DNA from: a virus
IMG/VR virus record: IMGVR_UViG_3300002462_000001
DNA length: 64,000 nt
Strand: one strand, 5' to 3'
Part shown: positions 2,397 to 20,610 of the stretch, one piece after another
Layout: the number at the start of each line of letters is the position of its first letter
Position numbering within the stretch: position 1 is the stretch's first letter
Made by a program: the position numbers and the translations under genes
Notes under the pieces: model-generated
The model's input: only the letters and a program-made list of their open reading frames with translations
What the model was told of the DNA's origin: nothing
Database searches by the model: none

Positions 2397-2433
2397 ATTA
2401 TAGCCAGAATCGGTCTGACCATTGTGCTATAAT
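2397..2433. promoter_or_regulatory. Back-to-back -10 promoter pair ATTATAGC-N21-GCTATAAT (copy 1)
   Basis: Each TATAAT lies 7 nt from an ATG (2389 minus, 2441 plus). Confidence 0.75.
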
Positions 2434-2474
2434 TGAGATTATGAATGCATAGCGTAGTTTAATTGAAATTAATC

Positions 2475-3545
2475 ATGAAATTGAGATTTGGAAAATTTGC
2501 CGCCGACAAAAAAGCAAACAGAATGGGCCAGATGTTCAAGGTTCTCTCAAACAGTGGACCAAAAGGCATCGAAAAAGCTCAGCGGATGTACAAACAGCTG
2601 TCAGGCGGTAGAAACGTTCCTGACGTGGACTTCCGCCCAAACCACTTCCGGGACGTTCTCATAAATCAAAACAAAGGGAACATTCCAGCTACCGGGAATG
2701 TGTCAGCGTGGCACTTCATGGATGCTCCGGCAAATCATGCCAGGCATTTAGCGTCCGGTAGAGGACTTCTTGGCGACATTCAATATAACCGCGTACACTC
2801 ACCCGAAGTGCAGAAAGCCTACCAATACGCCAAAAGCAACCCAGAAATCTCTCGATTTATTCCACTACCCAAAAACAAACCAATTACACTAGAAACCGGC
2901 AGTCCACGCAGAGGATTCCCGGAAACGGAAACAACTGTTCAACGAGGTATTTTTCGTAGAACTGACGGCGCAGAACATAATGTTCCCGCGCCCGGCGAAA
3001 TGAGAACAATGCTTGTCGCTAAAAATCAACCCACGCAACAAACGCTACCGCTAATACCGCATGAACTGCCACACACCGGTACAAGAGTTAGAGCACGATT
3101 AGCGAGCGTTGAAGAACCTGATATCGGCACTCACTTACTAGGCCTGAACAAATCAGTTAAAGTCACACATCATCAAGATGACTTACCGCTATTTAACCGA
3201 CTCCAAAATAGAGCAGCAGAGTTAGATGCTAACGCCAAAGCTTACAAATATGCCCCAGAGTGGGGTAAAGCCAAAATACCGGGCATTACACGCAAATCTG
3301 TACAAGATGCGGCGGCTAAATCTATGCTTGACAAAGATACAGGATACTTTGGCGCTGAACAATTAAACATACTATCAGCACAAATTCAACGCGATAGAAT
3401 ATCAAAAGTCGAAGCAAATCAACTGACTAAAATATTCACTGATTTACTGCAGCAATACCCGCACTTGCCAATACAAGATCGAATAGCGGTAAATAAACTG
3501 CTTAAAATGATTGAACAAGCTAAAAAAAGGACTATGTTTACATAG
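2475..3545 (+). CDS. Hypothetical ~355 aa cassette cargo protein A (MKLRFGKFAAD leader; weak HELPH motif)
   Basis: Long ORF against the prevailing strand; ATG 2475 preferred over TTG 2463. Confidence 0.75.
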   Translation: MKLRFGKFAADKKANRMGQMFKVLSNSGPKGIEKAQRMYKQLSGGRNVPDVDFRPNHFRDVLINQNKGNIPATGNVSAWHFMDAPANHARHLASGRGLLGDIQYNRVHSPEVQKAYQYAKSNPEISRFIPLPKNKPITLETGSPRRGFPETETTVQRGIFRRTDGAEHNVPAPGEMRTMLVAKNQPTQQTLPLIPHELPHTGTRVRARLASVEEPDIGTHLLGLNKSVKVTHHQDDLPLFNRLQNRAAELDANAKAYKYAPEWGKAKIPGITRKSVQDAAAKSMLDKDTGYFGAEQLNILSAQIQRDRISKVEANQLTKIFTDLLQQYPHLPIQDRIAVNKLLKMIEQAKKRTMFT

Positions 3546-3580
3546 CCCCATACGTCGTATTAATCGACAAGGCTTAAAGA

Positions 3581-3823
3581 TTAATCAGATTGATTAACGG
3601 CCGTTTTACTGGACAGTTTATATAACTGCTGAAACACCCACTTTGGCCACGGCTCTACTCGCGGACGAAATAAAAAACCATCAGTGAGAACATCCCACAC
3701 AAGCGGGGTATCAGTTCCAGAGATATAACCCTGCGGAGCAGCAGCTTCTACAGCAGCTAGCAATTCGTCCTTATTCTCCAACGTAATCTCCTGCGGCTCA
3801 GGAACAGGCGGTAATTTTTCCAT
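3581..3823 (-). CDS. Small hypothetical protein (80 aa) under repeated sigma70/GGA-hairpin leader
   Basis: ORF with SD AAGGGAG and conserved upstream module. Confidence 0.75.
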   Translation of the reverse strand: MEKLPPVPEPQEITLENKDELLAAVEAAAPQGYISGTDTPLVWDVLTDGFLFRPRVEPWPKWVFQQLYKLSSKTAVNQSD

Positions 3824-3904
3824 TTCACATCTCCCTTGTTAAAAGTTGAAATTCCATTCAACAATATCTACCGCAAATTTAACAGGTTTTTAGAGGTTTG
3901 TCAA
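3821..3904 (-). promoter_or_regulatory. Sigma70 promoter + GGA stem-loop + SD module, copy 1
   Basis: TTGACA(3899-3904)-17 bp-TAAATT(3876-3881); hairpin GTTGAA-TGGAAT-TTCAAC (3845-3862). Confidence 0.85.
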
Positions 3905-4365
3905 CCGCGAAGCCAGTGACCTTTGTGCCGCGCGTAAATCAATGTACCTCTTAGCGGAACACTCACAAACGCTTCCGAGATAATGATCGACACATCATAT
4001 ACGAACGCATTCGTTTTACCTACGCGTGTGATGTTTACACGATTCACTTTCGATTTTGGATGAACCAGCACGTGACATAACTGCTCACGCAATTTATCGG
4101 CATCAGTTACTTCATCTTCAGGAGGACCGCCAAGGTTAATTTTCATAGTCACCTCCATGTCTCCGTTAGACATCTGGAAAAAATCAAGATCTACAATATA
4201 GCCGGTAGATACAGCAGAATTAACAACGTTACACCAACGCACCTGCTCCCAGTCTGTTAACCGGTCCGGTTCGGGCTCAGATAACATTTCTGCTGAATAT
4301 AACAAGGGCGTACTCAGCCCCACAACCGACAATACCGTAGCTTTTAGAAAATCTCTTCGTTTCAT
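3901..4365 (-). CDS. Hypothetical protein with twin-arginine (Tat)-like signal
   Basis: N-terminus MKRRDFLKATVLSVVGL. Confidence 0.7.
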   Translation of the reverse strand: MKRRDFLKATVLSVVGLSTPLLYSAEMLSEPEPDRLTDWEQVRWCNVVNSAVSTGYIVDLDFFQMSNGDMEVTMKINLGGPPEDEVTDADKLREQLCHVLVHPKSKVNRVNITRVGKTNAFVYDVSIIISEAFVSVPLRGTLIYARHKGHWLRG

Positions 4366-4399
4366 AAGGTTTTATTAAAAATGTGCCGATGGCTTATCT

Positions 4400-4612
4400 A
4401 TGACAGCCATTATAGACGATTACTGGGTGTGCGCAAGATGCGGGCACAAAGTCCGAAAAAATAACGCACCGGCTAAATGCCTTGTTACCTATTTGGATGC
4501 GCAAGGAAACGAACACACGGAAATGTTAACGCCTTGCCTGCACAAGGGATGCCATCATGCACTGGAATTGCCAAGAAACTACTTCACCACAACTATCCAG
4601 ATTAACGGCTAA
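4400..4612 (+). CDS. Small Zn-finger-like hypothetical protein
   Basis: CARCG...C...CLHKGC pattern. Confidence 0.5.
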   Translation: MTAIIDDYWVCARCGHKVRKNNAPAKCLVTYLDAQGNEHTEMLTPCLHKGCHHALELPRNYFTTTIQING

Positions 4613-4620
4613 CCGCTAAA

Positions 4621-4863
4621 TCACCGCAGGCCATAATACCGGGATAAATCATTACCAAAAAGCCCAATACTGTTTGGCTTCGATATTGCCGGGTTTGATG
4701 CCGGCTGCTGCGGCATTTGCCTGGTTTGCTGTGCAGCCGCTTGCTGCGCTTGCCGCTGTGCTTGCTGAGTTGCCCGTATATCTGGATTTCCACGCCACGA
4801 TCCAGCCGCTGGAATCTGAGCAAATTTAACCGGAGAGGATTTACTGTTGAATGAAAGCTTCAT
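4621..4863 (-). CDS. Small Gln/Ala-rich protein with MKLxF..KFA leader
   Basis: ORF; N-terminus resembles cargo A; upstream TGGTAAAAT -10. Confidence 0.6.
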   Translation of the reverse strand: MKLSFNSKSSPVKFAQIPAAGSWRGNPDIRATQQAQRQAQQAAAQQTRQMPQQPASNPAISKPNSIGLFGNDLSRYYGLR

Positions 4864-4911
4864 GATTTTTAGTGAAAGTTAACTATGATAGTTATTTTAC
4901 CACACTACGAC

Positions 4912-5129
4912 GTGATACTCTTCAGGCTAAAGCCTGAAGCTTCTCTAAATTAGAGAATTATTCTCGCTTCATCAACTTTGCTACCCACATAATGGACATA
5001 GTCTTACTAAGTCTCCACGAATGTTGGTATCCCAACAACTGTTATTGTACCAAAGGTACTTTAACAATAAAAACCAAAATCGCACCTTATATCCTACGCC
5101 CTAAAGGGCGAGGGTTTACGGTGCTTTTG
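4912..5129 (-). mobile_element. Non-autonomous IS200/IS605 (IS1341-like) mini-element: left end + reRNA scaffold + right end, no ORF
   Basis: Left end CAAAAGCACCGTAAA..CGCCCTTTAGGGCG..GATATAAGGTGCG shared with the tnpB element at ~30228-30276; scaffold-like GGAGACTTAGTAAGAC..GATGAAGCGAGAA; right-end hairpin CTTCAGGC-TTTA-GCCTGAAG ending TATCAC. Confidence 0.8.
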
Positions 5130-5138
5130 CTCATTTTC

Positions 5139-5693
5139 TTAAAAAACAACTTCAGCACAAAGAGGAAACATCAGGGCAATAATCAGTAAAATAACCGTAA
5201 CAATGATTCCTACTATGTTGACGAATCTGGCTGCCTTTTTGTTCGTAAAACTTAACAACAGTGAAGTTATCACATATAGCGGCGCCACAATAACCGCCGT
5301 CACAAACACCCAAGACAGATTACTACGGATGTCTGATGTAATCTCTGCAACAGACTCAACCGCACCTAACCCAAGCAACATTAAAACCATAGCAACAGGA
5401 AATCCAATAAGAGACCTCATCAGCACTTTTGTGACCTTACTCCAACCGGCTCTCTCAGAAATAGGTCTTTCTGTGTGCCCGGCTGTAACCCAACCGTAAC
5501 ACCAAACAACCACAGCAATCAAACCAACGCCTACAATTAGCGCTGATGCCGAAATCAATAAAGGACCATCGCCAGTGATCACCGCCAAAGGAAACACCAC
5601 TGCTACCGTAAATAACAAAGTACCATAACCAATACAGGCAAACAATTCACGGCACAACCACACAATACTCCACGGCTTTATTTTACCGTCCAT
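5139..5693 (-). CDS. Polytopic membrane protein
   Basis: Several hydrophobic segments; sigma70 promoter and SD upstream. Confidence 0.75.
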   Translation of the reverse strand: MDGKIKPWSIVWLCRELFACIGYGTLLFTVAVVFPLAVITGDGPLLISASALIVGVGLIAVVVWCYGWVTAGHTERPISERAGWSKVTKVLMRSLIGFPVAMVLMLLGLGAVESVAEITSDIRSNLSWVFVTAVIVAPLYVITSLLLSFTNKKAARFVNIVGIIVTVILLIIALMFPLCAEVVF

Positions 5694-5789
5694 AATACAC
5701 CCCCATCAGATAGGAACAGAACAATTTCCGTTCACTTTTATGTACCGCAAATCACCGTTAAATTTAACACCTGACTTGAAGGGTGTCAA
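5691..5789 (-). promoter_or_regulatory. Divergent 4th copy of the sigma70 + GGA-hairpin leader
   Basis: TTGACA(5784-5789)-17-TAAATT(5761-5766); shared TTTGCGGTA; hairpin GAAC-GGAAATT-GTTC (5719-5733). Confidence 0.65.
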
Positions 5790-6038
5790 TCACGTCTTGG
5801 ACGAACACTCCAATTTATAGACAAGCGCGTAATCACCAAGAGTAGCCCATCTCTTATGCGTAAGATCCTTATCCGGCAACCAGTCGCAGTAGACATAAAT
5901 GACCGGTTTGTTTCGTAACTCACCCACCTCCGTACGTACAAACCAATCAAAACCCAGCACATCAACTAACTCTTCAAATATCAGAGCTACACGCTGCGGA
6001 CTAACACCTGTCTTTCCTCTCTTTTTTTCCTTCTTCAC
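5790..6038 (-). CDS. Hypothetical protein
   Basis: ORF with upstream GGTATAAT (6070-6077). Confidence 0.55.
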   Translation of the reverse strand: MKKEKKRGKTGVSPQRVALIFEELVDVLGFDWFVRTEVGELRNKPVIYVYCDWLPDKDLTHKRWATLGDYALVYKLECSSKT

Positions 6039-6089
6039 TGTCCACCTTTTGGGCTAAAGTTTTGAAACCATTATACCGAAAAGCACTCA

Positions 6090-6578: not shown

Positions 6579-6633
6579 AATATGACGGCTTATCATATGC
6601 AGTCGAATCCTTACGTTTAAAAAATTTAAACAT
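6337..6633 (-). CDS. Possible small membrane/coiled-coil protein, antisense-overlapping 6090-6578
   Basis: ATG 5 nt after the stop of the endonuclease gene; TM-like and heptad segments. Confidence 0.4.
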   Translation of the reverse strand: MFKFFKRKDSTAYDKPSYFIDRLSGGLMGACLGVSLWILLAPSDDALVCLLFPDRSCNKPKPEIVLLESVLLQLEQLDARLARLECELGAQSDPSTLP

Positions 6634-6637
6634 ACTG

Positions 6638-8686
6638 CTACTTTTTCAAAAGCTCATAACTTATCTTACCCGCATCATAAATACGATACCAACCAAGACA
6701 CTCAGTCATCTCCTTCTCAGTCCAATCTCTGGACTCAGGAGGTAAAAACTCTCCAAAATTTTGACGAATTTTTTTCTTTGTAAAATTAAAACGGTAGTAT
6801 CTACGACCAGTATCAAATCCGACGTGAACCATATCTGTCCAATACCAATAAGCCGGTTCTACAATACCATATGATTGAAAGCCGTGATTTAAATAAATGT
6901 TATTATTTGGGTCAACCCATCTTAAATCAGCATAACTGTATAGCCTGTTGGTCATTGTCAATAAATAATTAACCAGCTTAGTAAACGCACCTGGAACAGA
7001 TTTTGTAATATCTGTTGCGAATCTACTAATCTCCAGCCCTTCTTGCGGACTACTTCCCTCCCTTGATAGCTGAGATTTATTAACAGTGACTACGGCCACT
7101 GGCATATCCGCATAAAACAAACCAATATGCCGCCCGCGACAAAACCCCTGAATATGATTTTTAACCATAAATCCACGAGCTATGCTCGGCTCAACCGACT
7201 GAACTGCACACTTACGCGCGCCAACTACAGGTTTATCCGCCGAACCGCCAAAAATATGGCTCAACTTGTCAACTACAATATCTCTAGTAAACTCCCATTC
7301 GTCTTCAAATATCTGTATTAAACGAATTCCTGATTCCTGACAAGCTAGATACTTATTGTAATGATAATTTTGCTCCAATCGCGGACTACTGTGCCAAAAT
7401 AGCCCGTTAAATTCAATTGCTAATTTTTGTTCAGGATAATACAGATCTAATTCATGACCTTTTACAGCGTTTTTTATATTAGTATAATCTGTCGGAAAAA
7501 GAGAGCATAACTCTATTTCAGGTTGCGAACGAAAACGCTCAACATATTTATAAAAGTCTAACCTTTTGAGTAAAGCGCAAACATACGCATGTGAGTAATT
7601 AAGCATTTTGGCTACCTCAAACGAAGTAGGCTTTCTCTGCATTATCTCTTGAACACTTATTAAAAATCGCTCAAATAAATCTTCATCCTTTGTAACCAAT
7701 ATCTGCTGTTGACTTTTATCCTGCTGTTCATGGTGCTCAGCCCCATAACGCTCTAAACATGTTTGCCGAGCCTTACGGTTTACTGCTGGATTTAGTAATG
7801 AGCAACCAGCACCATAACGCTGCAAATTTGTCTGACGCACCTTTGACTTGATCGCACAACTTTGTGCGACATTCTCAACACCGTACCTTTCCTTGTTTGT
7901 TTGCTTACTTTTATCCTGAAATTCTTTTACTTGAAAAGCATTTTCAACACAGTAACGATGTAAATTTGTCTGCTTTATTTTATCCCTAATATCCGCACAG
8001 CGCATCGGATGATCAACACCATATTTTTTTTGAAATGTTTGTTTGATTTTTCTCTTTATGTGCGCAGACTGACAAATATGATCAACGCCATATCGTATTT
8101 GACACGTTTTTTTAGTCTTCTCTTTCATAATATCGGTTTGACAAAAATTCTCCTTTCCGTATTTTTTTAAACACGTTTTCCTACGTCCGGTCACAACCAA
8201 TTCACCGTCTTTAACTATACCGTGATATTTAGCACTTTTGCATACTGTTGACACTGATGTGTTAAGTATTGTTGCTACCTCACTAACAGATAGATTCTGA
8301 CGAATATAAAGATCATAAAGGTACTCTTTTGAAATAGCCTGGTAAAGTATTTCTTTTTTAATGTTGCGATATTCAAGCGCTCGCTGCACTACACAAGACG
8401 AAACACCCAATCGCTCTGCGATCTGCGCCTGCGATAAGTTTTCAGTAATATACAGATCATAGAGGTAATCCCTAGGTATTGTTTTATAAATAGCTGTATC
8501 CTTCTTCGAAATACCATGATAACAAAGAGCGGTCCTTAACACTTTACTTGAAATACCTAAATGCTTCAGGATTTGATTGCGTGGTAGACGTTGAGTTATG
8601 TACAGATCATACAAAAGATCTTTTGATACTGTCTTATACTTGGCCATAGCGTTTAACATACTGTGAAGTCTTTTTAAATTTTTCAA
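6638..8686 (-). CDS. Free-standing homing endonuclease, Hef/Vsr-like PD-(D/E)XK with repeated DNA-binding modules
   Basis: 3x YDLYI..LG.S..AL.YHGI HTH repeats, ~7x K.KQT..RYGV repeats, SQPEIEL..ELDLYYPEQKLAIEFNGLFWHS nuclease core, GNAT-like C-terminus. Confidence 0.8.
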   Translation of the reverse strand: MKNLKRLHSMLNAMAKYKTVSKDLLYDLYITQRLPRNQILKHLGISSKVLRTALCYHGISKKDTAIYKTIPRDYLYDLYITENLSQAQIAERLGVSSCVVQRALEYRNIKKEILYQAISKEYLYDLYIRQNLSVSEVATILNTSVSTVCKSAKYHGIVKDGELVVTGRRKTCLKKYGKENFCQTDIMKEKTKKTCQIRYGVDHICQSAHIKRKIKQTFQKKYGVDHPMRCADIRDKIKQTNLHRYCVENAFQVKEFQDKSKQTNKERYGVENVAQSCAIKSKVRQTNLQRYGAGCSLLNPAVNRKARQTCLERYGAEHHEQQDKSQQQILVTKDEDLFERFLISVQEIMQRKPTSFEVAKMLNYSHAYVCALLKRLDFYKYVERFRSQPEIELCSLFPTDYTNIKNAVKGHELDLYYPEQKLAIEFNGLFWHSSPRLEQNYHYNKYLACQESGIRLIQIFEDEWEFTRDIVVDKLSHIFGGSADKPVVGARKCAVQSVEPSIARGFMVKNHIQGFCRGRHIGLFYADMPVAVVTVNKSQLSREGSSPQEGLEISRFATDITKSVPGAFTKLVNYLLTMTNRLYSYADLRWVDPNNNIYLNHGFQSYGIVEPAYWYWTDMVHVGFDTGRRYYRFNFTKKKIRQNFGEFLPPESRDWTEKEMTECLGWYRIYDAGKISYELLKK

Positions 8687-8691: not shown

Positions 8692-8720
8692 ATTATACAG
8701 TACTACACAAGTAATGTCAA
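8692..8720 (-). promoter_or_regulatory. Consensus sigma70 promoter of the endonuclease gene
   Basis: TTGACA(8715-8720)-17 bp-TATAAT(8692-8697) with TG just upstream of -10. Confidence 0.85.
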
Positions 8721-8740: not shown

Positions 8741-11700
8741 TTATTTCTTTAAAATTTCAACCTCGTCTGACAAACTAACCTCGCCAGCCCTGTAAGCACG
8801 CTTCATATCCTCAACCGTCGCAAACACTTTCGCTCTACCTTTCTTCTTGCGAGTTCGCGACCCCTCGTAGAGACCTTGCTGCCAGTCCTCCAGAGCTGTA
8901 AACATCGGCTCCCTGTTCAACGGCGATAACAAATTTTGCGACGGAAGCATTAACCGCTTAGCCTCATCTACCGCCTCATCGCTGATTGGTACTTGAAAAT
9001 TAAGAGCGTCGCCGTCCGTGTCCATCGAGTACCCAGACGAAACATACTGATTCATATGCATAGCGTCCCCTTTTACCAACCTGGGCCATAGTGCCATAAT
9101 GCCGTATTTGTGTAAAACCGGACTACGATCTACGACTACGGGTCGTTCCTTTGTTGCCTGTAGCAACGCTTGTTTTGCACGCCTATCCTTACTATTGTAC
9201 ATGTCCTGCGCCTGCATCAATGGTACACCGCCGCGCACCAACTTACGGATAATAACCGGCTTGTAAATTTCATACGCCGAATTTATCGGAATGCCTACCT
9301 CATCCATATCAAGTTGCGGATTAATGGTAATAACGTTCCTGGCAACATTGTCCACACCGCCGCCCAGCAAACTTCGCTGCACCATTCCGTATTTGCTGCT
9401 CCCATCGCCGAATACATTTTTCAACAAACCGCTCACGCGCTTCTGTACCAACTTTGGATGAGTCGGATCCATTAACCCGGTAATCTGCTTGAAATAGTTA
9501 TACGACTGCAAATACTCCTCGCCAGCATCGCCAATCTGCCGCTCCAACTCCTTAACCGAATCGTTATGATCAATAAACTGCTTGTACAGGTAGTTCACAT
9601 CCGCAACAAGTGCCGTCTTGGAACCCGTCATCTCAGATACCGGCCGGAACTTCGGAGGAATAACAGGCACTCTGTCCAACATCCAATCCGCAGGTGTTAG
9701 CTTGTTGTCTTTAGCGGATTTGAGAAACTGCAGCCGTTTAATAGCTTCGTCGCGCTTAGTACCTCTTCCATCAGCAACAACAGCACGGGCACGCAATATC
9801 TCCTGATCTACGTTCACCGCTAAAAGCGCTTTCTGTATGGCCTGTGGCCCAGTACCGTGAACACCAATACTCTCACGACCAGCAATCACTGACTCCAACT
9901 TTGCTTGCGTAAGACCAAGAATACGCCGTGCAGGTTCCTCCATAACCGGATTTAGAACAGGCTGAGTAGGCTTAATATAACCCCACCGGTCGCCATACTC
10001 ACCAAAGATCTTCGGATCGAACAGCCCATTAGCTATGCCTTTTTTATCGCCTTCCCATTTAATGGTTTCACTATTTTTTACCTCACGATTACCGGCCAGT
10101 TCCTTAACGTCATCATTGGTAAGTGCCATCATTTTAAACTTACCCGCCTTCGGAACCACATGAATCCCTGAACCTTCCAAATGCGCCATGAACTTGTGGA
10201 ACATCTCAGGCTGTTCAGGCTCCGGTGGCGTATAACCTCGCATGAAACTGGCCCAAAAAAGATCATTTTTAGCCCCGCGTATCCTACGAGCGTCGGCAAG
10301 CACGTTATACGCACCGTGAGATACAAGAGCATTTGTGTGCATTAGCGCAACCCTCTTTGCACCATTTTCACCGCCAGATGCAGGTTGTCCATCTGCTGTA
10401 TACCGACCAAATGAACGCGAAGATTCTTTGCCCTCGGCACTATGATGCAATTTCTGGATGAACCCGTAGCCCCAACCTATTCCCTTACCATCAACGCCAG
10501 TAATTTGTTTACCGGTCTCTGGATCTGTAACAGCATCACGAATATTAATCCCGTGTTCCTTTGCCAATTTCATCACGTACTCAGCCGTATCTGGATTCTT
10601 CGGATCAAAAGACTCTATTTTTATAGGACGGCCTAACTTCTTCGCAATTCGACCAAGCACATGTTCATGGAGCATGGCATGGTTAACTCTTCCAATGTTG
10701 GATATTGGCGAAAAACAGATCATAGCCGGACCATCTGGAGTCATAGGCATCTGATCATCAGGCACTATCTCGTTTATAACGCCTTTGTTTCCGTATCTGT
10801 TCGAACATTTATCGCCGACGCGCATCGGCTGTAGCGACTTCACAATAACGTTAACTCCGTTCTTATCCGTATGTATTGCTGTAACTACTCCCGGATCCTC
10901 GTTATCCCACTCAAGCGCACTGTTCATCAGTGAATTAGCGCCCTTGCGGTGTATGCGGTCAACCGGTTTCGTGTTAACATCCGCCTTAAGAACAAGCGGA
11001 TCGCCTTGACTCACCTTTGTACCAACTTTGACAATACCGTTATCATCAATCGTCTCCAACTGATCCTTATCGTAAATACCTGGAAACGCACCAATGAACG
11101 TGTTCTTACCTTGCTTTATATTGTCAGTCCAATCTATGCGGTGCTGATACGCATGCTGACTCTTCATCCTGTCAGCAAACGATTGACTAATCACAATACC
11201 GTCCATCGTGTTAGAGCCGCGCCACGGCATAACAACCGCTCGAGCGTTCAACCCCTGCGCTAACGCACCTGTATCATCAGTAAAATTAGACTTAGCAAGA
11301 ACCTGACCCTTTGTTATACGCTGTCCAGGCTGCACTAATGGAGAGTGCGATACAACCGTCTTACGGTTCGTAGGACTATCCTTAATCATCGGATATGTCT
11401 TTTCACCGTCGGCCGTATCAACCACAATAGAATCATCCGTAACACGTTTAACAACACCATCCGCTTTAGAGTTCACCGTTGCAAATCTGCCCACACGGTC
11501 TTCATAAGACTCATCCTCAGTACCTGGTACTTTCGATTGAACAAGAGGTGCTTCGCCGCCTTCCAAAGGAAGCGACTGAGTAAGCATACGAGCCGCCATT
11601 GCTACACGCTGACCTTTAACACTCCCAATCATAGGTATCAGATTGGACAAAGCGTTATAAGCACCTTGCGCATTAGGCATTATGTAGTCAATCTGATCCC

Positions 11701-13147
11701 GCTTAATGCCCATTCGTGGCTGCCTGTCGCTGTCAAATGCCGCAATTCTAGGCGCATCGCTGTCCCACTCCGACTGAAGCGTAAGACGAGACTTGGCTAA
11801 CTCCACAGGATTCTTGTACTCCTGCTTACCTGTTTTAGCGTTGATTACCGGTACATACAAATCGCCAGTTGAACTCTTAAGAGCACTGCTGCTGATGTAC
11901 GTGTCAACACCGGCACGTAACGATTCAGGTGTCTGCAAAGGATCAATAAACCCAAACATCGTGTTGTTTACTTCCCTCGCTGAATCCGGAATTGCTGACA
12001 CATCGCCGATCGCACCGCTGCCCATTCGAGTAACGCTAAACAGCTTACTGTACATGTCATACGGGTTTATCTCTTCAGCAGGTGAAGCCAGACCGCTCTG
12101 AGTAATAACCGCATTAAGCTGCTTCGTAAGAAGTCCAGGAGGTATCTTACTGAGGTCAGGATTATTCTTAGAGAGAAAAGTTAATTTATTAAGAGCCTGC
12201 CTTCTGACCCTGCCGTCATCTAGCTTGAGACGCTCTGCAAATAAATCCTCAGGTCCCATAAACCGTTGAAACTGCATAGCGTCTCTGTTGTCGCTATCCA
12301 CCTCTCCTCTGGCCAGCCGCATCAATTTAGACGAAGCAGCAATAACATGCCGCTTGTCAAATACATCGTCGTCAATATCTAAATTCGTTCGGCTAACCTC
12401 ACGGGCAAACTTTATCGCCTTAGCCTGCTCCTGTATCCGCTGACGCATTATTTCATCGCTATCCTTGTCGCCAGGCCTATGATATTGCTTCCTGACAAAC
12501 CTGTCGTAAAGCTTCTTCATGTTCATATCCTTTGCCTGCGCTTTGTTTATGTCCAACACACGCTTTCCCCACGCAGCCTCTAACTCCTCGTCAGTAGCGC
12601 CCATCGCGTTGAGAAAGGTGTAAAGCGGGATGTGGTTCTTACTAATCTCCATGCTAAACTTACCAGTCTTCGGGTCAAACTGATAAGCGTGAGTAGGACC
12701 TTCATGCGAAGCCGCATTAACATTGGAAATGAACTCTCCGTTCTCCTTCATTCGAGTGTAAATACCATTCTTCAACCGTTGCTGGCTCTTTATATAGTAC
12801 ATCGTACCGTTATCCATAATACCGCCGTTTGGCAATACATACGGAACATGAGCCAAGAGTTTTTTGGAGCGTTGAATCGGCTTCCCAGTCTGCGTATCAG
12901 ACAGAGTCCATACACCATGCAACTTACGCGTTAAAGACTTCTGCTGAAGACGAGCCTGGTGTATGTCGTGAGCGTTATACTCCGGAGAATCGCCCCAACT
13001 CACGTCAGAAATACTCAAAGTATAACGGTTGTTCTGAGCCGGAGGTAAATTGCTCGCAGTGTCAAAGACCGACGAAAATACGGCTTCACGAAGAGCGTCA
13101 GTGTCGTCGAAAGCCCTAAGCTTTAATTGAGGAGGAGGTGTAGACAT
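8741..13147 (-). CDS. rpoBC: Fused RNA polymerase beta + beta' N-terminal half (catalytic subunit)
   Basis: beta motifs FGFIDPLQTPE, GDKCSNRYGNKGVI, FIQKLHH, PEMFHKFM; beta' motifs GLFDPKIFG, VPVIPPKFRP, DRSPVLHK, YSMDTDGD, MLPSQNLLSP. Confidence 0.96.
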   Translation of the reverse strand: MSTPPPQLKLRAFDDTDALREAVFSSVFDTASNLPPAQNNRYTLSISDVSWGDSPEYNAHDIHQARLQQKSLTRKLHGVWTLSDTQTGKPIQRSKKLLAHVPYVLPNGGIMDNGTMYYIKSQQRLKNGIYTRMKENGEFISNVNAASHEGPTHAYQFDPKTGKFSMEISKNHIPLYTFLNAMGATDEELEAAWGKRVLDINKAQAKDMNMKKLYDRFVRKQYHRPGDKDSDEIMRQRIQEQAKAIKFAREVSRTNLDIDDDVFDKRHVIAASSKLMRLARGEVDSDNRDAMQFQRFMGPEDLFAERLKLDDGRVRRQALNKLTFLSKNNPDLSKIPPGLLTKQLNAVITQSGLASPAEEINPYDMYSKLFSVTRMGSGAIGDVSAIPDSAREVNNTMFGFIDPLQTPESLRAGVDTYISSSALKSSTGDLYVPVINAKTGKQEYKNPVELAKSRLTLQSEWDSDAPRIAAFDSDRQPRMGIKRDQIDYIMPNAQGAYNALSNLIPMIGSVKGQRVAMAARMLTQSLPLEGGEAPLVQSKVPGTEDESYEDRVGRFATVNSKADGVVKRVTDDSIVVDTADGEKTYPMIKDSPTNRKTVVSHSPLVQPGQRITKGQVLAKSNFTDDTGALAQGLNARAVVMPWRGSNTMDGIVISQSFADRMKSQHAYQHRIDWTDNIKQGKNTFIGAFPGIYDKDQLETIDDNGIVKVGTKVSQGDPLVLKADVNTKPVDRIHRKGANSLMNSALEWDNEDPGVVTAIHTDKNGVNVIVKSLQPMRVGDKCSNRYGNKGVINEIVPDDQMPMTPDGPAMICFSPISNIGRVNHAMLHEHVLGRIAKKLGRPIKIESFDPKNPDTAEYVMKLAKEHGINIRDAVTDPETGKQITGVDGKGIGWGYGFIQKLHHSAEGKESSRSFGRYTADGQPASGGENGAKRVALMHTNALVSHGAYNVLADARRIRGAKNDLFWASFMRGYTPPEPEQPEMFHKFMAHLEGSGIHVVPKAGKFKMMALTNDDVKELAGNREVKNSETIKWEGDKKGIANGLFDPKIFGEYGDRWGYIKPTQPVLNPVMEEPARRILGLTQAKLESVIAGRESIGVHGTGPQAIQKALLAVNVDQEILRARAVVADGRGTKRDEAIKRLQFLKSAKDNKLTPADWMLDRVPVIPPKFRPVSEMTGSKTALVADVNYLYKQFIDHNDSVKELERQIGDAGEEYLQSYNYFKQITGLMDPTHPKLVQKRVSGLLKNVFGDGSSKYGMVQRSLLGGGVDNVARNVITINPQLDMDEVGIPINSAYEIYKPVIIRKLVRGGVPLMQAQDMYNSKDRRAKQALLQATKERPVVVDRSPVLHKYGIMALWPRLVKGDAMHMNQYVSSGYSMDTDGDALNFQVPISDEAVDEAKRLMLPSQNLLSPLNREPMFTALEDWQQGLYEGSRTRKKKGRAKVFATVEDMKRAYRAGEVSLSDEVEILKK

Positions 13148-13154: not shown

Positions 13155-13191
13155 ATTATAGCCCGAATCGGTCTAGCACCTGTGCTATAAT
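13155..13191. promoter_or_regulatory. Back-to-back -10 promoter pair, copy 2
   Basis: ATTATAGC-N21-GCTATAAT; ATGs 7 nt (13147 minus) and 6 nt (13198 plus) away; shares GAATCGGTCT with copy 1. Confidence 0.8.
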
Positions 13192-13197
13192 GAAATT

Positions 13198-14265
13198 ATG
13201 AGTTACAAATGTGGTGGTTTTGATCTAGAGTTTCTGTCAAAATGTGTTTTGAAAAATCCAAAGTACCCACCTGGATACGTGCCTGGTGCGGGTATTGCTA
13301 AACTAGCCGGTGGTGTAATTATTCCAGGTATTGGATTTGTGCGATTGAACCCTGATTGCAACGAACGTCTTAAGAAAGCGGGCTATGTTCCTGGTGCGGG
13401 TATTGCTAAATTGGTGGCTGATTCACGTAACAAACAGTTGGAAAAGCTCGGTTTTATGCCGCTTGCTTTACGCGCTGGCGCTAGTCTTAAGACGTTATTG
13501 CCAACTATAAAAAAGAAACTTTTCACCTATAGAGGTCCTCAATTTGTAAAATCTCCGTTGGGACAGGCTGCCTTAGCTGGCGGTCTTGGAGCTGGAACTT
13601 TGGGCGGTAGCCTTTTAGGTGTTGATTATTTAAATCATGGGCCGCCACTTAGAGATTTAGCTGGCAGGCGTGCGGCTAACCCAGATGAAAACAATGCACA
13701 CTGGAGAAATGGAAAACCAATGAATATTAGTGGTTTAACGCCGCAACAGCGTGAAGATGCATATACATTGTTTGACGCGATGCATAACAACAAAAGAACA
13801 CAGCATCTGAGTTACCCGTCTATCCGCGTTAACCCAAAGCTACAGAATCCGCAATATAGCCCGTTATGGAACACAATACAGTTGCCCACAAAATCAAGTC
13901 TAAATGAGATGTTTCACGAAGGGGCGCACCGTACTACATACGGTACTACTTTTTGGAATCCGGTGAATAATATTCGGTTTCGTGGGCCAGGACTAAGGTT
14001 TTCGCAAAACTACCTACAGAATGAGTCTCGCACAGCAAGAGACCATTTCGAACTAAATCAACACGCACCAAAAAATCGCCAACTTACAGAAAAAGAGATT
14101 GCTGATTTTTGGAGAAATAATCTTACAGGGCATGCCAGTAACTACAAAGACTACAATCAGGTATGGAAAAAGTTCATGCGTAATCATAAACCATTCACGC
14201 AGTCAGATATGAATTCGAGCTTATGGTCACTACCGCAAACACTACCTGAGGGCTTTAATAATTAA
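13198..14265 (+). CDS. Cassette cargo protein B, putative zincin metallopeptidase domain
   Basis: Leader LKNPKYPPGYVPGAGIAKLA (partly duplicated), Gly-rich hydrophobic segment, NEMFHEGAH (HExxH) with downstream Glu (NESRT). Confidence 0.7.
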   Translation: MSYKCGGFDLEFLSKCVLKNPKYPPGYVPGAGIAKLAGGVIIPGIGFVRLNPDCNERLKKAGYVPGAGIAKLVADSRNKQLEKLGFMPLALRAGASLKTLLPTIKKKLFTYRGPQFVKSPLGQAALAGGLGAGTLGGSLLGVDYLNHGPPLRDLAGRRAANPDENNAHWRNGKPMNISGLTPQQREDAYTLFDAMHNNKRTQHLSYPSIRVNPKLQNPQYSPLWNTIQLPTKSSLNEMFHEGAHRTTYGTTFWNPVNNIRFRGPGLRFSQNYLQNESRTARDHFELNQHAPKNRQLTEKEIADFWRNNLTGHASNYKDYNQVWKKFMRNHKPFTQSDMNSSLWSLPQTLPEGFNN

Positions 14266-14289
14266 AAAAAAACCGCATTACTGTGCGGT
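14264..14289 (-). terminator. Intrinsic terminator between convergent genes
   Basis: ACCGCA-ttactg-TGCGGT stem preceded by an A run on + (U-tract on -). Confidence 0.7.
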
Positions 14290-14305
14290 AAATTCTTCTG
14301 CAGAA

Positions 14306-14542
14306 TTAGTTGCTACACTCTTCTAAATCTGTTTTCTGCGTAGCAATTTCTATCGATTCTGTACCTTCTTCAGGTTTAGTTGGTTCTTCCTGAAGCAATT
14401 TATGCATCACTTCCATACGTTCACGGTGTCCAGCGTTACGGGACTCCAAGAAACAACTGTGACTATAAGCCAAAACAGCTCCCAGAAGCACTAATGCAAT
14501 AAGCAGCTCAATTAACGTAAAACCGTAATTTGCTCTTTCCAT
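14306..14542 (-). CDS. Small prepilin-like protein (class III signal peptide)
   Basis: MERANYG|FTLIELLIALVLLG: G-1, F+1, E+5, hydrophobic helix. Confidence 0.75.
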   Translation of the reverse strand: MERANYGFTLIELLIALVLLGAVLAYSHSCFLESRNAGHRERMEVMHKLLQEEPTKPEEGTESIEIATQKTDLEECSN

Positions 14543-14624
14543 AACTCACCTCCATTGGTTAAAAGTTGAAATTCCCTTCAACAATATCTACCGCAAATTT
14601 ACCTAAATTTTAGAGGTTTGTCAA
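14540..14624 (-). promoter_or_regulatory. Sigma70 promoter + GGA stem-loop + SD module, copy 2
   Basis: TTGACA(14619-24)-17-TAAATT(14596-601); GTTGAA-GGGAAT-TTCAAC (14565-82); SD GGAGGTG. Confidence 0.85.
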
Positions 14625-16302: not shown

Positions 16303-16406
16303 GATACGTTCCTTTCAAATTGTTAAAACAGTAAGGAAAGTTCAAAACGATAATACTTTCCTCACTATTTCTTACCATAAAAAGAATGGTTTTTTAAGGC
16401 ACGCGC

Positions 16407-18416
16407 CTACAGCACCAGCGGAGCCTTCACAATAGGTTCAAAACTATCCCACTGCACCACCGGTGTTTCCGGTATGATGATTGCCGGATGTTTATATCTA
16501 GCAGCCGTAGATAAAAACTGCGTAAGAATCTGCTTATTCATCCACACACCATCCGACGGCGCATTGTACTTATCAGCGCCTTTGTATCTGGGACCATGAG
16601 AGTTAAGGAAAAACACATAGTCTTCGCCGCCGTCAAATACATACCCGCCAATCGAAGTTGAGTGATTCCACTTACCGGATAAAGTCGCTATACGCATACC
16701 GTTCTTACCGGCACATTTATCTGCAACCTTTGTTGTGTTACCGAGAAATAACGCAAGACCGGATTTACACACCTCAACCACTCTATCTACCATGTTATCC
16801 AAAGGCATAAAGCAAATACCGGACTGATGCTTTGCCGCCTCTTCATGGTAATCCATGTAGTCCTTCGGTACAGTTATGTTGTTCTCGCCGATAACGGACA
16901 TCGGGAAGTTGCCGATAACGTTTACTGCGTTGGAGACCGCCATTATTGAATTAGCAACTAAAACACCGTTCATAAAATAGCTATCAACACCCTCCGGAAC
17001 GATAGCGTAATTGTGCTCACTCCACTGTCGCTTATCGTCCGGCTCAGGATCAAGCACGGAGATCATATAAACTGGTTTTATACCTACAGGCTCAACTGAT
17101 ACAACTCTATGATTATTTTCAGCCAACTCTGACACAAAATTATCGTACGAACCAAAATTCTTGCATATGCGCTTTAATCTCGCAGCAAAACTATCAGTTT
17201 TTGACGACTTACCAGTTACTTTGGCAATAGCTGCTCTATACTTGCCTTCAGTAGAAATATCATAACCTAAATTTATTATTTTATACGCAGCATCCAATTG
17301 TTTTTGTTTAGATCGTAACAATCTATTTTGCCTATACGTCTCGGCAAAATCTGAATCAGTTGCTACGCGATGCCACATTTTTAAAACCGTGGAAGAACGT
17401 TTAGTACTACCTACATGACCTAAAAAATGCTCAGCTCTCGATACAATTTCTAAATTTTCCTCCAAGTTATTTAATCTATTCTCATCTTTATGATGTACTA
17501 CACCATCAGACAAATCAAAACCCATAACGTCTCCAAGCACTAATTGATGCATGTAGGCCTTACCTTTCTTTCTGTCATGCAATCCAACCCTGATATACCC
17601 GTCAGTATGTTTTGATGTTGACACCTGGAACAGACTCTGACCAACCTTTAAATTAACAGCATGAACAAATTCACCTGTTTTTAACATCATTGGATGATCG
17701 CACGAAAGCTCGAATACGCCTTTGTCTGTCGTTACCCGAACACACTCCTTCACGCCAGAATATGTGGCATACGCTTTTTTAGCCGCAACGCGCCCTAATC
17801 GCCTGGAATACGATAAAATAACAAACTCTTCTCCACTTAAAGCTAACTCGCCGGCTTTTTTAGCCCCAACTGAAGTATAAACCCGCTGATCAAACGTTAA
17901 ACACTGCCCGCCCTTATAACTCCCTTTCTTTGACCAGAGCCACGCAGCGGTAGGGTTGGCGGGGTTATATAGATGCGCCTGACCCAATGCAAGATTTATT
18001 AGCGTGGACATGTTGCTTGCGAATGCGGCCGAATGTCCTGAACACGTGGGACGACCCCCTTGCGAGAAAGCAAACTTATTACTCTTCTTAAACTGAATCG
18101 GCAAATGCGCTAACACATCCCAAGGAAGCCAACTATACCCCGCAGCATTAACACGAGCAAGTAATTCCTGCCTCTGTTTCAAGTATTTTTCAAACTCAGC
18201 ATCCCAAGCAAAGATCGGCATATCGCCGCCGCGCTCCCAGCCGGACATAGAGATTGTATCAGCACCCATAGACTCACAGAGCGCCTCGTCGTAGTCGTCG
18301 AACTCTACACACCCGTTAACGATGAGACCGTCCTCTATAAGATCATTCTGACTTCGGCGGCGAAGCGCCGCCTCGGACATCTCAATTTGCTGCCGCCGTC
18401 TTCTGAAAAGTGCCAT
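16407..18416 (-). CDS. Papain-like (C1-type) cysteine peptidase interrupted by an HNH intein
   Basis: SQGGRPTCSGHS (Gln/Cys), WNHSTSIGGY (His), FLNSHG (Asn). Confidence 0.8.
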   Translation of the reverse strand: MALFRRRRQQIEMSEAALRRRSQNDLIEDGLIVNGCVEFDDYDEALCESMGADTISMSGWERGGDMPIFAWDAEFEKYLKQRQELLARVNAAGYSWLPWDVLAHLPIQFKKSNKFAFSQGGRPTCSGHSAAFASNMSTLINLALGQAHLYNPANPTAAWLWSKKGSYKGGQCLTFDQRVYTSVGAKKAGELALSGEEFVILSYSRRLGRVAAKKAYATYSGVKECVRVTTDKGVFELSCDHPMMLKTGEFVHAVNLKVGQSLFQVSTSKHTDGYIRVGLHDRKKGKAYMHQLVLGDVMGFDLSDGVVHHKDENRLNNLEENLEIVSRAEHFLGHVGSTKRSSTVLKMWHRVATDSDFAETYRQNRLLRSKQKQLDAAYKIINLGYDISTEGKYRAAIAKVTGKSSKTDSFAARLKRICKNFGSYDNFVSELAENNHRVVSVEPVGIKPVYMISVLDPEPDDKRQWSEHNYAIVPEGVDSYFMNGVLVANSIMAVSNAVNVIGNFPMSVIGENNITVPKDYMDYHEEAAKHQSGICFMPLDNMVDRVVEVCKSGLALFLGNTTKVADKCAGKNGMRIATLSGKWNHSTSIGGYVFDGGEDYVFFLNSHGPRYKGADKYNAPSDGVWMNKQILTQFLSTAARYKHPAIIIPETPVVQWDSFEPIVKAPLVL
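16950..17903 (-). mobile_element. Intein (318 aa) with HNH endonuclease
   Basis: GGQ|CLTFDQRVYT...CDHPM...VHHKDENRLNNLEENL...NGVLVAN|S. Confidence 0.88.
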
Positions 18417-18524
18417 GGTTCGTGAAAGATTAGTGTGAGTTTCCTATATCTATTATAACCGACATAATCGACGGTCAAAAACCATAACTCAATATAAGAG
18501 CAAAAAGAGCCGATTAATTGAAAC

Positions 18525-18845
18525 ATGATGCAATTTAACGAGGAAATTATGCTGGCGATCTTTGACCATTTTCTCAATCATCCAGAAAATATATCCAAGA
18601 TTTTCAAACCAAACGCATACAGCCCACTAACAGTCGAACAGATAAACGATCTAGGCCCAAAACACTTGCAATGTGATCAAAATTTACTTTGGTGGCATAA
18701 ACTGCTTTTTGCAAACGAGTTCATACTGCGCCCAGAACTTGTACAAAATGCCACAAGCGGCTGGTTACGACTTAACGAACCTGCCGACTTTCTTAGTTAC
18801 AGAGGTCAACAAATGCTTCGAAGACTTAAAAAGATATACGAATAA
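18525..18845 (+). CDS. Hypothetical winged-helix-like protein
   Basis: ORF; LRLNEPADFL wing-like segment. Confidence 0.5.
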   Translation: MMQFNEEIMLAIFDHFLNHPENISKIFKPNAYSPLTVEQINDLGPKHLQCDQNLLWWHKLLFANEFILRPELVQNATSGWLRLNEPADFLSYRGQQMLRRLKKIYE

Positions 18846-19223
18846 AAATAGGTATGGATGATATAGCGCGAACTCATCCCAACCACACAAATCACCCGGT
18901 AAAACACCAGAACTACGGCCGCGATCTTCAGGTATACTTTTTGACCGCTCAGCAAGATGTTTCTGCACATCCAAAAGGTATTTTGCGTCTAAACACCTTG
19001 CAATCAGGTATCTGTAACATAAATAATAAATTATGGGATGCCTGAAACGAAACGCATACATATACCCCACGAAATCGTTAACATACCGCCAATAATAAAA
19101 CTCGAAGTCAATCAGCCCTTCTTCTTTTGCTCGATTCTCCGGTAACCTGTCAGGCTCAACGAATAAATACATGATAATTTCCGTGAAGTTTTCCAGCATT
19201 ATAGCACAAGTCGACGAAAACAT
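18765..19223 (-). CDS. Hypothetical protein
   Basis: ORF downstream of the minus arm of promoter copy 3; true start likely internal. Confidence 0.5.
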   Translation of the reverse strand: MFSSTCAIMLENFTEIIMYLFVEPDRLPENRAKEEGLIDFEFYYWRYVNDFVGYMYAFRFRHPIIYYLCYRYLIARCLDAKYLLDVQKHLAERSKSIPEDRGRSSGVLPGDLCGWDEFALYHPYLFLFVYLFKSSKHLLTSVTKKVGRFVKS

Positions 19224-19233
19224 AAGTTATAAT
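19198..19233. promoter_or_regulatory. Back-to-back -10 promoter pair, copy 3
   Basis: ATTATAGC-N20-GTTATAAT, then TGAGATT-ATG identical to copy 1. Confidence 0.75.
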
Positions 19234-19240
19234 TGAGATT

Positions 19241-20317
19241 ATGACAATGAAAATTGAATACAGCGGTTTTGGTACAATACCTCTGACAAGCTGGATTTTG
19301 AAAAATCCAAAGTACCCACCGGGATATGTGCCTGGCGCCGGACTTGCAAAGATGGCAGCTGACGCTAAATTAGCGCAGTTTAAGCGTGACTATCCTGGTC
19401 TGGCAGCAATGTTCGACGACAGTGAAAAAATGTACGATAGTGAACCAAAACTCTTTAAATCCGCAGCGTACAAACGTCACGCGCACAGATGTAAAACCGG
19501 TCTACGGTTCAAGTCAGCGTCAGGAGACAGCGCGGATCTTGCTTACGCTGCGACACCCGGCGGCGCAGGAGCAAACGCTGCAACACTAATAGATGCAACG
19601 AGTAAAATTGTTCCACCGTTACCTGACCCGAGTACGACCCATCCTGACACATCTATTGCAAAGGCGACAGCACTTAACACACTAGCAACCGGTAAGCAAC
19701 TGCCCGCGAACACACCACATAACATACGCCAAGATATCGAAAATGCAAAAGATACGCTCACAGTCAACCAATTCAATAATGATTTTCTTGGACCAGCGGC
19801 GCACGTTAAAAACACTGATATCCATAGAAACACACAAATGGCAGCATTTACAGCCGCAACAGTTCCGTCTGCTGCAAGCGGGCTAGCTAAACATCCGATG
19901 ATTGCCCCTGTATTTAAGCCGTTTCAAAATCGGATACCGTCAACACTGTTAAATGCGGGAAAATCCGTTGGACTACGATTTATTCCGGGCGTAGGCTGGG
20001 TAACACTTGGAGCAGAAGCAGGAAGTTACATGTTAGATCGAGCAGATAACCATCGATTTAACCAAAACCCAGGACTCTACACCTGGCACAACTACTCTCC
20101 AGAGCGAACATGGTACCAATACTTTACTGCGTCTACAACATCAGATAAGATGCGCACCTGGGTCAACCTGCAACCGGAAGAAACTAAACAACGGATACTA
20201 AATGACCAGCAAAAAAAGCTCGAACAACAGGAGCAACGTAAAAACCGCTCATGGGGACAGACACTTAATGATTCTATGGAAGCATACGGTAACAGTCTCA
20301 GATATCAAAGCCGATAA
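19241..20317 (+). CDS. Cassette cargo protein C
   Basis: Leader LKNPKYPPGYVPGAGLAKMAAD; Ala/Gly-rich, FIPGVGWVTLGA hydrophobic hairpin. Confidence 0.75.
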   Translation: MTMKIEYSGFGTIPLTSWILKNPKYPPGYVPGAGLAKMAADAKLAQFKRDYPGLAAMFDDSEKMYDSEPKLFKSAAYKRHAHRCKTGLRFKSASGDSADLAYAATPGGAGANAATLIDATSKIVPPLPDPSTTHPDTSIAKATALNTLATGKQLPANTPHNIRQDIENAKDTLTVNQFNNDFLGPAAHVKNTDIHRNTQMAAFTAATVPSAASGLAKHPMIAPVFKPFQNRIPSTLLNAGKSVGLRFIPGVGWVTLGAEAGSYMLDRADNHRFNQNPGLYTWHNYSPERTWYQYFTASTTSDKMRTWVNLQPEETKQRILNDQQKKLEQQEQRKNRSWGQTLNDSMEAYGNSLRYQSR

Positions 20318-20327
20318 GTTGACCGCT

Positions 20328-20356
20328 AAAAAAAACTAAGGGAATAATTCCCCTAG
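20328..20356 (-). terminator. Intrinsic terminator between convergent genes
   Basis: A run then CTAAGGGAA-taa-TTCCCCTAG stem. Confidence 0.6.
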
Positions 20357-20366
20357 CATGCGCAAT

Positions 20367-20528
20367 CTAAAGCTTCCCCCACCAATCAAAAAAGATACAC
20401 ATCGCCGTCCAAGTTAAAAGCCCCAGTAAAAACAGCACCCACAAAGCATCAAACGCGGGCTGCCAAGTAGGTTCGGAATCACGCCGACGCTCGGCCTCAC
20501 CCGCCTGTTCTCCAATTTCTTTTTCCAT
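20367..20528 (-). CDS. 53 aa single-pass membrane protein (missed by ORF track)
   Basis: Hand translation MEKEIGEQAGEAERRRDSEPTWQPAFDALWVLFLLGLLTWTAMCIFFDWWGKL*; SD GGAGGTG as in copy 2. Confidence 0.75.
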   Translation of the reverse strand: MEKEIGEQAGEAERRRDSEPTWQPAFDALWVLFLLGLLTWTAMCIFFDWWGKL

Positions 20529-20610
20529 AACTCACCTCCATTGATTAAAAGTTGAAATTCCCTTCAACAATATCTACCGTAAATCTACCTAAATTTTATC
20601 GACTTGTCAA
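20526..20610 (-). promoter_or_regulatory. Sigma70 promoter + GGA stem-loop + SD module, copy 3
   Basis: TTGACA(20605-10)-17-TAGATT(20582-87); GTTGAA-GGGAAT-TTCAAC (20551-68). Confidence 0.85.

Follow-up and report, generated by a model that had tools for sequence, protein, structure and literature searches.

Convergent gene pairs with conserved promoter ends recur across the genome of an uncultured phage

What kind of element recurs in one viral genome with the same ends, the same layout and different genes in between? The question is raised by a stretch of 64,000 nucleotides (nt) of viral DNA (IMG/VR record IMGVR_UViG_3300002462_000001; hereafter the window), which covers positions 107,675-171,674 of a 186,885-bp metagenomic contig. 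An earlier note had pointed to three two-gene units in it, at positions 2397-3904, 13155-14624 and 19198-20610, and had read them as cassettes with exchangeable contents. All three are present at those coordinates. We found that each is a convergent expression unit, in which a long open reading frame (ORF) and a smaller gene face each other from two different conserved ends, an anatomy that we hold with high confidence. The readable part of the contig (130.5 kb of 187 kb, tiled via gene look-ups and the basis of all copy counts below) contains at least eight such units. Their right-hand modules are linked to long ORFs, the long ORFs form a mosaic family, and in relatives the contents have been exchanged near the conserved ends. 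The reading that we favour, and consider probable, is that the conserved promoter and leader ends of this family double as recombination homology.

Anatomy and copy number of the units

In each unit of the window the long ORF is on the plus strand and the small ORF on the minus strand, with lengths that agree with those reported: 356, 355 and 358 amino acids (aa) for the long ORFs (355-360 aa claimed) and 80, 78 and 53 aa for the small ones (53-80 aa claimed). In unit 1, P0128 (356 aa; 2475-3545, plus strand) is a basic ORFan with HELPH at residue 196, and it faces P0004 (80 aa; 3581-3823, minus strand), which is acidic, lacks a membrane segment and has an ortholog of about 90% DNA identity in the relative L007. 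Unit 2 pairs P0002 (355 aa; 13198-14265, plus strand), with an N-terminal leader, GYVPGAGIAKL twice and HEGAH at residue 240, with P0005 (78 aa; 14306-14542, minus strand), which has a prepilin-type N-terminal methylation motif (PF07963, E 1e-7) and an acidic tail. Unit 3 pairs P0003 (358 aa; 19241-20317, plus strand), which carries the shared leader and no HExxH motif, with P0006 (53 aa; 20367-20528, minus strand), which has a C-terminal membrane helix. A minus-strand intrinsic terminator closes each small gene. It had been claimed for units 2 and 3, where it is found between the convergent genes (14272-14289, a hairpin with a T-run on the minus strand) and as a consensus match (20335-20357), respectively; the limit to these two units falls, since unit 1 has one too (3549-3528 on the minus strand), overlapping the 3' end and stop codon of the long ORF.

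The codon-usage score is highest in the annotated frame, among all six frames, for all six ORFs of these units. That the long plus-strand ORFs could be non-coding artefacts was rejected on this score and on the homologues found elsewhere, and that the units could be insertions of foreign composition was rejected because their GC content and codon usage are native.

The right modules lie on the minus strand at 3815-3904, 14534-14624 and 20520-20610. The aligned copies (3810-3904, 14530-14624 and 20516-20610) are 71-91% identical over 95 nt and 78-91% over an 86-nt core; nhmmer gives them E-values of 1e-31 to 1e-35, the next-best match being at 0.002. Conservation begins at the -35 hexamer and ends at the second or third codon of the small ORF. 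In between, on the minus strand, come TTGACA, 17 nt, TAAATT, GTTGAA-(G/T)GGAAT-TTCAAC, TTTTAA, GGAGGTGA (the ribosome-binding site, RBS) and the ATG; in unit 1 the series reads TTGACA-17-TAAATT, a 5' untranslated region (5'UTR) with TGGAAT in a weak hairpin, the RBS and ATGGAAA. Every copy has a predicted sigma70-type promoter (TTGACA-17-TAAATT or TAGATT) that matches 10 of 12 consensus positions.

A search for copies beyond these three, with a model built from eight module copies and run on the 130.5 kb, added five further units. The eight strong or moderate copies stand at record positions 44,839, 49,902, 63,189, 71,709, 102,526, 111,583, 122,300 and 128,288 (E-values from 1e-25 to 1e-35), and each of the eight stands before a gene that is convergent with a long ORF. 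Unit 4 consists of P0130 (348 aa) and a 66-aa partner ORF that overlaps it by 33 nt, unit 5 of P0132 (299 aa) and a 134-aa partner, unit 6 of a 549-aa long ORF and a 73-aa membrane protein, and unit 8 of an 816-aa long ORF and a 95-aa partner. In unit 7, a leader-bearing ORF, with the leader and a 317-aa body in different frames, faces a 343-aa ADP-ribosylglycohydrolase. There are also partial, promoter-only copies of the module, and a weaker copy in the window (5689-5789, minus strand) precedes a 184-aa ORF (5139-5693) without a convergent long partner. A terminator directly upstream of the module was found only for the copy of unit 5.

The family extends beyond this genome. L006, a 2.7-kb contig from a different metagenome, holds a complete unit. 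Its left end has the same form, CAT-7 nt-ATTATAGC-N20-GATAGAAT-7 nt-ATG; the long ORF is P0129 (351 aa), and a terminator, the gene of a membrane protein of 88 aa and the module complete the unit. Another sequence, L010, is 100% identical to the contig at unit 7; there (L010:2272-3232, record position about 42-45 kb) the MKIEYS leader runs for 46 codons to a stop and the 317-aa body follows in another frame, which could reflect a frameshift, a pseudogene, an assembly error or recoding. Beside unit 8, a 246-aa ORF (L016:14675-15415) has a weak match to Sigma70 region 3 and may encode a phage sigma-like factor that bears on the promoter classes.

The left-end motif, ATTATAGC-N20/21-GYTATAAT, was matched at all three loci for which it had been reported, with 0.00 matches expected by chance (100 shuffles). 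The motif consists of two -10 boxes in inverted orientation. In unit 1 (2397-2433) the pair lies 7 nt from the minus-strand ATG at 2389 of the RNA polymerase (RNAP) beta'-C gene and 7 nt from the plus-strand ATG at 2441, and in unit 2 (13155-13191) it lies 7 nt from the minus-strand ATG at 13147 of the RNAP fusion gene and 6 nt from the plus-strand ATG at 13198. In unit 3 (19198-19233) there are 7 nt to the plus-strand ATG at 19241, and the minus side faces a 152-aa ORF (18765-19223). Gaps of 6-7 nt have no room for an RBS, so leaderless mRNAs are predicted. The conserved ATG of unit 1 is the remnant of such a start (2441-2452, plus strand; an ATG, two codons and a stop), and the long ORF restarts 22 nt on, at ATG 2475. 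On the other side, the gene caller chose ATG 2422 for RNAP beta'-C, whereas the arrangement TATAAT-N7-ATG favours 2389.

The same arrangement, TATAAT-N6-7-ATG, precedes both RNAP genes, the three long ORFs and other genes of the window (26542, 30207 and 59594), and it also stands before the RNAP gene of a relative (75% identical) and is seen in L006, L005 and L010. The left end therefore reads as a promoter that faces both ways and serves the adjacent gene too, and not, as had been proposed, as a dedicated end of the cassette; among the units, the palindromic form is limited to units 1-3. In the seven units with a promoter-adjacent start the long gene follows a TATAAT box, at a gap of 6-7 nt in units 1-5 and 7. 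The adjacency of two units to RNAP subunit genes, also reported before, is real, and the relation is a divergent promoter partnership: unit 1 with the RNAP beta'-C gene (2-2389, minus strand, running past the window start), which carries a LAGLIDADG/Hint intein, and unit 2 with the RNAP beta/beta'-N fusion gene (8741-13147, minus strand), which has a predicted leaderless start. Next to unit 3, a back-to-back promoter, GGCTATAAT (20604-20661, plus strand), serves a divergent 145-aa ORF and has sequence in common with unit 4.

Could the similar sizes and ends be a coincidence without any biological link? That some of the long-ORF bodies have no detectable similarity would fit with this. The E-values of the modules, a left motif for which no chance match is expected, five further units in the genome and one in another phage make it so improbable that we regard it as already refuted.

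What the right end does can be read in part from what it conserves. It had been described as a sigma70, stem-loop and Shine-Dalgarno module, and the promoter, 5'UTR and RBS before different ORFans are indeed there; the stem-loop is weak. Its AT-rich stem of 6 bp has a predicted stability of -5.5 kcal/mol (z about 0 relative to shuffles), and across 11 copies 92% of stem positions are paired without significant covariation (49 of 500 shuffles reach the score). One stem pair is broken in each of units 4, 6 and L010, and the L006 module has no stem yet keeps GGGAAT. With neither a stability excess nor significant covariation, we rejected the hairpin as a conserved RNA structure. GGA occupies the loop position in 10 of the 11 aligned copies (the single other copy has GAGAAT) and occurs in the RBS of all 11. 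Since GGA is kept where the stem is broken or absent, the conserved feature is the sequence. The phage encodes a CsrA homologue of 64 aa (36951-37145, minus strand; PF02599, E 6.5e-18), and the loop GGA, the RBS GGA and this gene together make a two-site CsrA leader a reasonable reading, with the phage CsrA as the candidate regulator of these leaders.

The long proteins and their partners

The long ORFs had been taken for unrelated cargo. We found instead a mosaic paralogous family, with shared leaders, some shared bodies and an HExxH motif in six of eight members. P0002 and P0003 are 58% identical over their first 38 aa and 74% identical over 97 nt. An exhaustive HMMER search of 1.84 billion representatives returned only three relatives of P0002: P0129 (E 2e-26, 40% identity in the C-terminal domain), P0131 (E 6e-14) and P0130, which matches in the leader only (84% identity over residues 24-78). 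Homologues of the C-terminal domain of P0002 are thus P0129, P0131 and, in unit 6, the 549-aa ORF, which matches the P0002 body profile at E 2e-8. The leader is common to P0002, P0003 and P0130, and weakly present in P0129, on bodies that differ; P0003 has its first 12 residues in common with P0130 and 9 residues in common with the unit 7 ORF. P0132 joins an N-terminal segment of the P0003 type (E 2e-5) to a body of the P0130 type (E 8e-7). Sequence comparisons gave no match for P0128. The products are ORFans of about 300-550 aa (816 aa in unit 8), all of them strongly basic.

A common N-terminal leader on different, strongly basic bodies would suit the packaged cargo proposed in the earlier note, virion proteins like the internal proteins (IP) of T4, the leader being a capsid-targeting signal that the prohead protease removes before the proteins are injected with the DNA. 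T4 IP loci are, moreover, variable and flanked by analogous promoter/stem-loop elements (PMC2839356). However, units 1, 5, 6 and 8 have a degenerate leader or none, a cleavage motif was not identified in the long proteins, and their genes have the start type of the RNAP genes, not that of structural genes. We think packaging quite unlikely.

Six of the eight long ORFs, as well as P0129 and P0131, contain exactly one HExxH; P0003 and the unit 7 ORF have none. Of the 76 ORFs with 150 aa or more in the 103 kb first examined, 6 have the motif; 5 of these are long ORFs of units (unit 8 adds another), and among the 69 other ORFs of that size it is found in 1. This lone ORF outside the units (L005:4898-5716, 272 aa, HELLH) is divergent from the long ORF of unit 5. 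A PL(W/F/Q)(N/D)T(I/V)-like stretch precedes HExxH in the body type here called body 1, in unit 6 and in unit 8, and body 1 has a conserved NE about 33 residues past the motif, a candidate metal ligand. Searches of Pfam, NCBIfam and PHROGs placed the long ORFs in no family and recognised no peptidase, and sequence and profile searches of the PDB gave nothing significant. Aligning two body types with hhalign matched only the motif (E 0.057, not significant). AlphaFold2 models of P0128 and of the P0002 C-domain (predicted local distance difference test, pLDDT, of 46) were too poor for a fold search, and models from the ESM Atlas resemble M48, M56 and M1 peptidases weakly (template modelling, TM, scores of 0.35-0.46), which makes them leads only. 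The HExxH motif suggests that the long proteins may be zincin-type metalloproteases, a proposal that we regard as evenly balanced.

The genes driven by the module are usually ORFans of 53-134 aa, often membrane-anchored and followed by an intrinsic terminator. They include two prepilin-like mini-proteins, several proteins that cross the membrane once, two charged proteins that are soluble, one basic protein of 134 aa and one glycohydrolase; searches of Pfam, PHROGs and NCBIfam matched only the prepilin motif and the ADP-ribosylglycohydrolase. A diverged prepilin-like protein of 62 aa with a GYTLVE motif (L011:1634-1822) stands behind a module in the related sequence L011 and faces a remnant of the P0002/P0129 type.

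Do the long protein and its partner work together? All four body-1 long ORFs have N-terminally anchored small partners, two of them prepilin-like, an association that hints at a functional link without proving one. Complex prediction for P0128 with P0004 gave a score of 0.00, which counts neither for nor against binding. We regard functional pairing as possible but rather unlikely. It is central to a reading of the units as effector-partner pairs of the polymorphic-toxin kind, in which the leader would target an HExxH effector, the early gene would encode its inhibitor, substrate or membrane adaptor, and the two would travel together. The conserved N-terminus before variable bodies, the long ORF beside all eight strong or moderate modules, the membrane-anchored partners of body 1 and the 3' ends of paired genes, which abut or overlap, are in line with it. 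Yet the partners have no common family (one is the 343-aa glycohydrolase), the genes are convergent where toxin and immunity genes are co-directional, and family-library scans detected no known trafficking or toxin domain. This leaves the effector-partner reading conceivable and, to our judgement, rather improbable.

Exchange of contents between relatives

We compared L011 with L005, and found flanking genes 84-93% identical to those of the contig around a different cassette. Between the stop of a 473-aa gene and a 170-aa gene, L011 has only a 62-codon P0129-like 3' remnant, the prepilin-like 62-aa gene and a module, about 420 bp in all. The genome of the window has about 2,066 bp there, with P0130, the 66-aa gene, a module and a further two ORFs. 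One breakpoint coincides with the stop codon of the 473-aa gene; homology returns in the promoter of the module, and the other breakpoint is just past the -10 box of that promoter, where the genome of the window retains a promoter-only module remnant.

The second case is recent. L009 is collinear with the window over 8 kb at 87% identity, and has zero mismatches over 1,077 nt (19597-20673) that include the long ORF of unit 3, its terminator, the small ORF, the module and the promoter back to back with it. Mismatches begin 12 nt inside the next gene, and the following genes are 96, 89, 81, 80, 75, 83, 80 and 73% identical. Such sharply mosaic identity implies recent recombination between diverged lineages. 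Over 19597-27594 there is a second stretch of 100% identity, at about 26200-27400, with 73-89% in the genes between. Replacement in one case and recent exchange in the other, with breakpoints at or beside conserved ends, bear out the proposal of exchangeable contents, in a comparison that rests on few loci. In L007, identity to the window is 90% across unit 1 and 79% in the flanks. Units 3 and 4 have an extra promoter segment in common beyond the -35 hexamer.

A simpler account would be plain paralogous expansion, in which a convergent pair was duplicated, its coding parts diverged and its ends were kept by function only, without a role in exchange. It draws support from the single layout of all copies, the native codon usage of all ORFs and the lack of mobility genes in the units, none having been found in family-library scans. 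It does not sit well with the L011/L005 breakpoint just past the -10 box, nor with a mismatch-free block that stops at the promoter region among neighbours of 73-89% identity. Simple divergence would not give the mosaic combinations of leader, segment and body either, and module identities do not track the body types of the long ORFs. Expansion alone thus seems possible but on the unlikely side.

We return to conserved ends that double as recombination homology. The ends would stay alike because they function as working promoters and leaders, and would act as patches of homology because they are alike. The recombination system of the phage could then swap, delete and spread the gene pairs, much as with the promoter-early stem-loop (PeSL) cassettes of T4-type phages. 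The module genes would be immediate-early transcripts of the host RNAP, which the phage CsrA may later shut off; the leaderless long genes would share an expression class with the RNAP genes, and their products might act as zincin-type metalloproteases on host or membrane targets. A bolder version, in which leader-tagged zinc proteases and cognate early partners are reshuffled as pairs in a diversity-generating effector system, a polymorphic-toxin-like arms-race locus, appears doubtful to us.

Several observations weigh against this picture. In L007 and L009, units 1 and 3 occupy the places that they have in the window, which suggests that many copies are stably inherited, and a 676-bp indel beside unit 1 (3941-4617) uses a 7-bp microhomology, TGATTTA, and not the module; both would fit paralogous expansion as well. 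Neither a recombinase nor a target duplication nor a circle junction was seen at the units. The TATAAT promoters may be read by the host or by a phage polymerase. To these we add, from the preceding sections, the unremarkable stability and covariation of the hairpin, the loss of the stem in L006, the GAGAAT copy, the two long ORFs without HExxH, the family and PDB searches without a peptidase and the poor AlphaFold2 models.

The 676-bp segment, missing in L007, carries a 154-aa ORF (3901-4365) and is bounded by the direct repeat TGATTTA; positions 4906-5129 of the window are likewise missing there.

Genome setting and known systems

The window has a GC content of 43.7% and the majority of its genes on the minus strand. 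Its gene set is phage-like, with a DNA polymerase, a DnaB-type helicase, a UvsX-like recombinase, many homing endonucleases and TnpB, and it encodes its own RNAP, split over two genes (the beta/beta'-N fusion and beta'-C). The gene of a 682-aa homing endonuclease (6638-8686) sits between them, with a perfect TTGACA-17-TATAAT promoter (8692-8720, minus strand) 5 nt 5' of its TTG start. None of 50,697 phage records is close to the window at the DNA level, and scans of IMG/VR with the RNAP protein and two module patterns gave no match. The relatives of the RNAP, 64-75% identical, are all metagenomic; their two RNAP genes carry inteins at various sites, and the proteins measure 1,770-2,500 aa. In L002, whose RNAP is 75% identical, a GC-rich geneless stretch of 577 nt (9424-10000) directly 5' of the RNAP gene looks structured; Rfam found nothing in it (E up to 1), and had no match in positions 1-24000 of the window.

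How do the units compare with systems already described? Polymorphic toxins, including the MuF-type toxins of phages, have a conserved N-terminal part with a known trafficking domain, variable C-terminal bodies that recombine, and, directly behind the toxin gene and co-directional with it, the gene of the cognate immunity protein. The long ORFs resemble them in their conserved N-termini, variable bodies, several HExxH motifs and adjoining variable small gene. They differ in that this neighbour is convergent, predicted to be early and read from its own promoter, and no known trafficking or toxin domain was detected. If the pairing is functional, the units would offer at least eight natural effector-partner combinations ready for testing.

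The module has traits of CsrA-controlled leaders, with a GGA in a short hairpin loop, a second GGA in the RBS about 20 nt downstream and, in the phage, a CsrA homologue that may bind there; it departs from them in the copy with a GAGAAT loop and in the stem that L006 does not maintain. Two predicted modes of translation, leadered and CsrA-sensitive on one side and leaderless on the other, would be opposed in each unit. With zincin metallopeptidases the long ORFs have in common a single HExxH zinc-binding motif in most members. As in the T4 IP loci, a short conserved leader is found on otherwise unrelated basic proteins, at plastic loci flanked by promoter/stem-loop elements (PMC2839356). In contrast to these, the leader here is about 40-75 aa long, mosaic and missing from several proteins, and the genes are spread over more than 80 kb and not confined to two small loci.

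A close parallel is also found in the PeSLs (Arbiol et al. 2010, PMC2839356; Comeau et al. 2014, PMC4122927). PeSLs adjoin ORFans, and recombination between their copies yields indels, replacements and mini-circles (PMC2839356, PMC4122927). In both cases a block of about 70-100 bp, built on a promoter sequence of the strong, early sigma70-like type, is repeated in the variable parts of a large phage genome, where it stands before ORFans. Here, too, there are many copies, every driven gene except the unit 7 glycohydrolase lacks a family match, and the L011/L005 and unit 3/L009 breakpoints are at the promoter region. The present genome is, however, not T4-type and has its own split beta/beta' RNAP. 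Its hairpin is weak, AT-rich and placed in the 5'UTR, whereas that of PeSLs is stable, often polyG/polyC, and serves as a terminator or attenuator. The block also fixes the RBS and the first codons, a second conserved end consists of a leaderless promoter and a leader-coding segment, and each driven gene is convergent with a gene that is predicted to be leaderless and comes from a single protein family, a pairing not reported for PeSLs.

If our reading holds, PeSL-type shuffling of promoter cassettes would extend to an unrelated, uncultured phage lineage of about 187 kb with its own RNAP, and with two additions: a repeated block that fixes the promoter, the 5'UTR and its possible CsrA site, the RBS and the start codon, and, opposite every gene driven by that block, a predicted leaderless gene, always of the same family of HExxH proteins, which evolves fast. 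The case would also show how homology at regulatory sequences can give rise to ORFan diversity in large phages.

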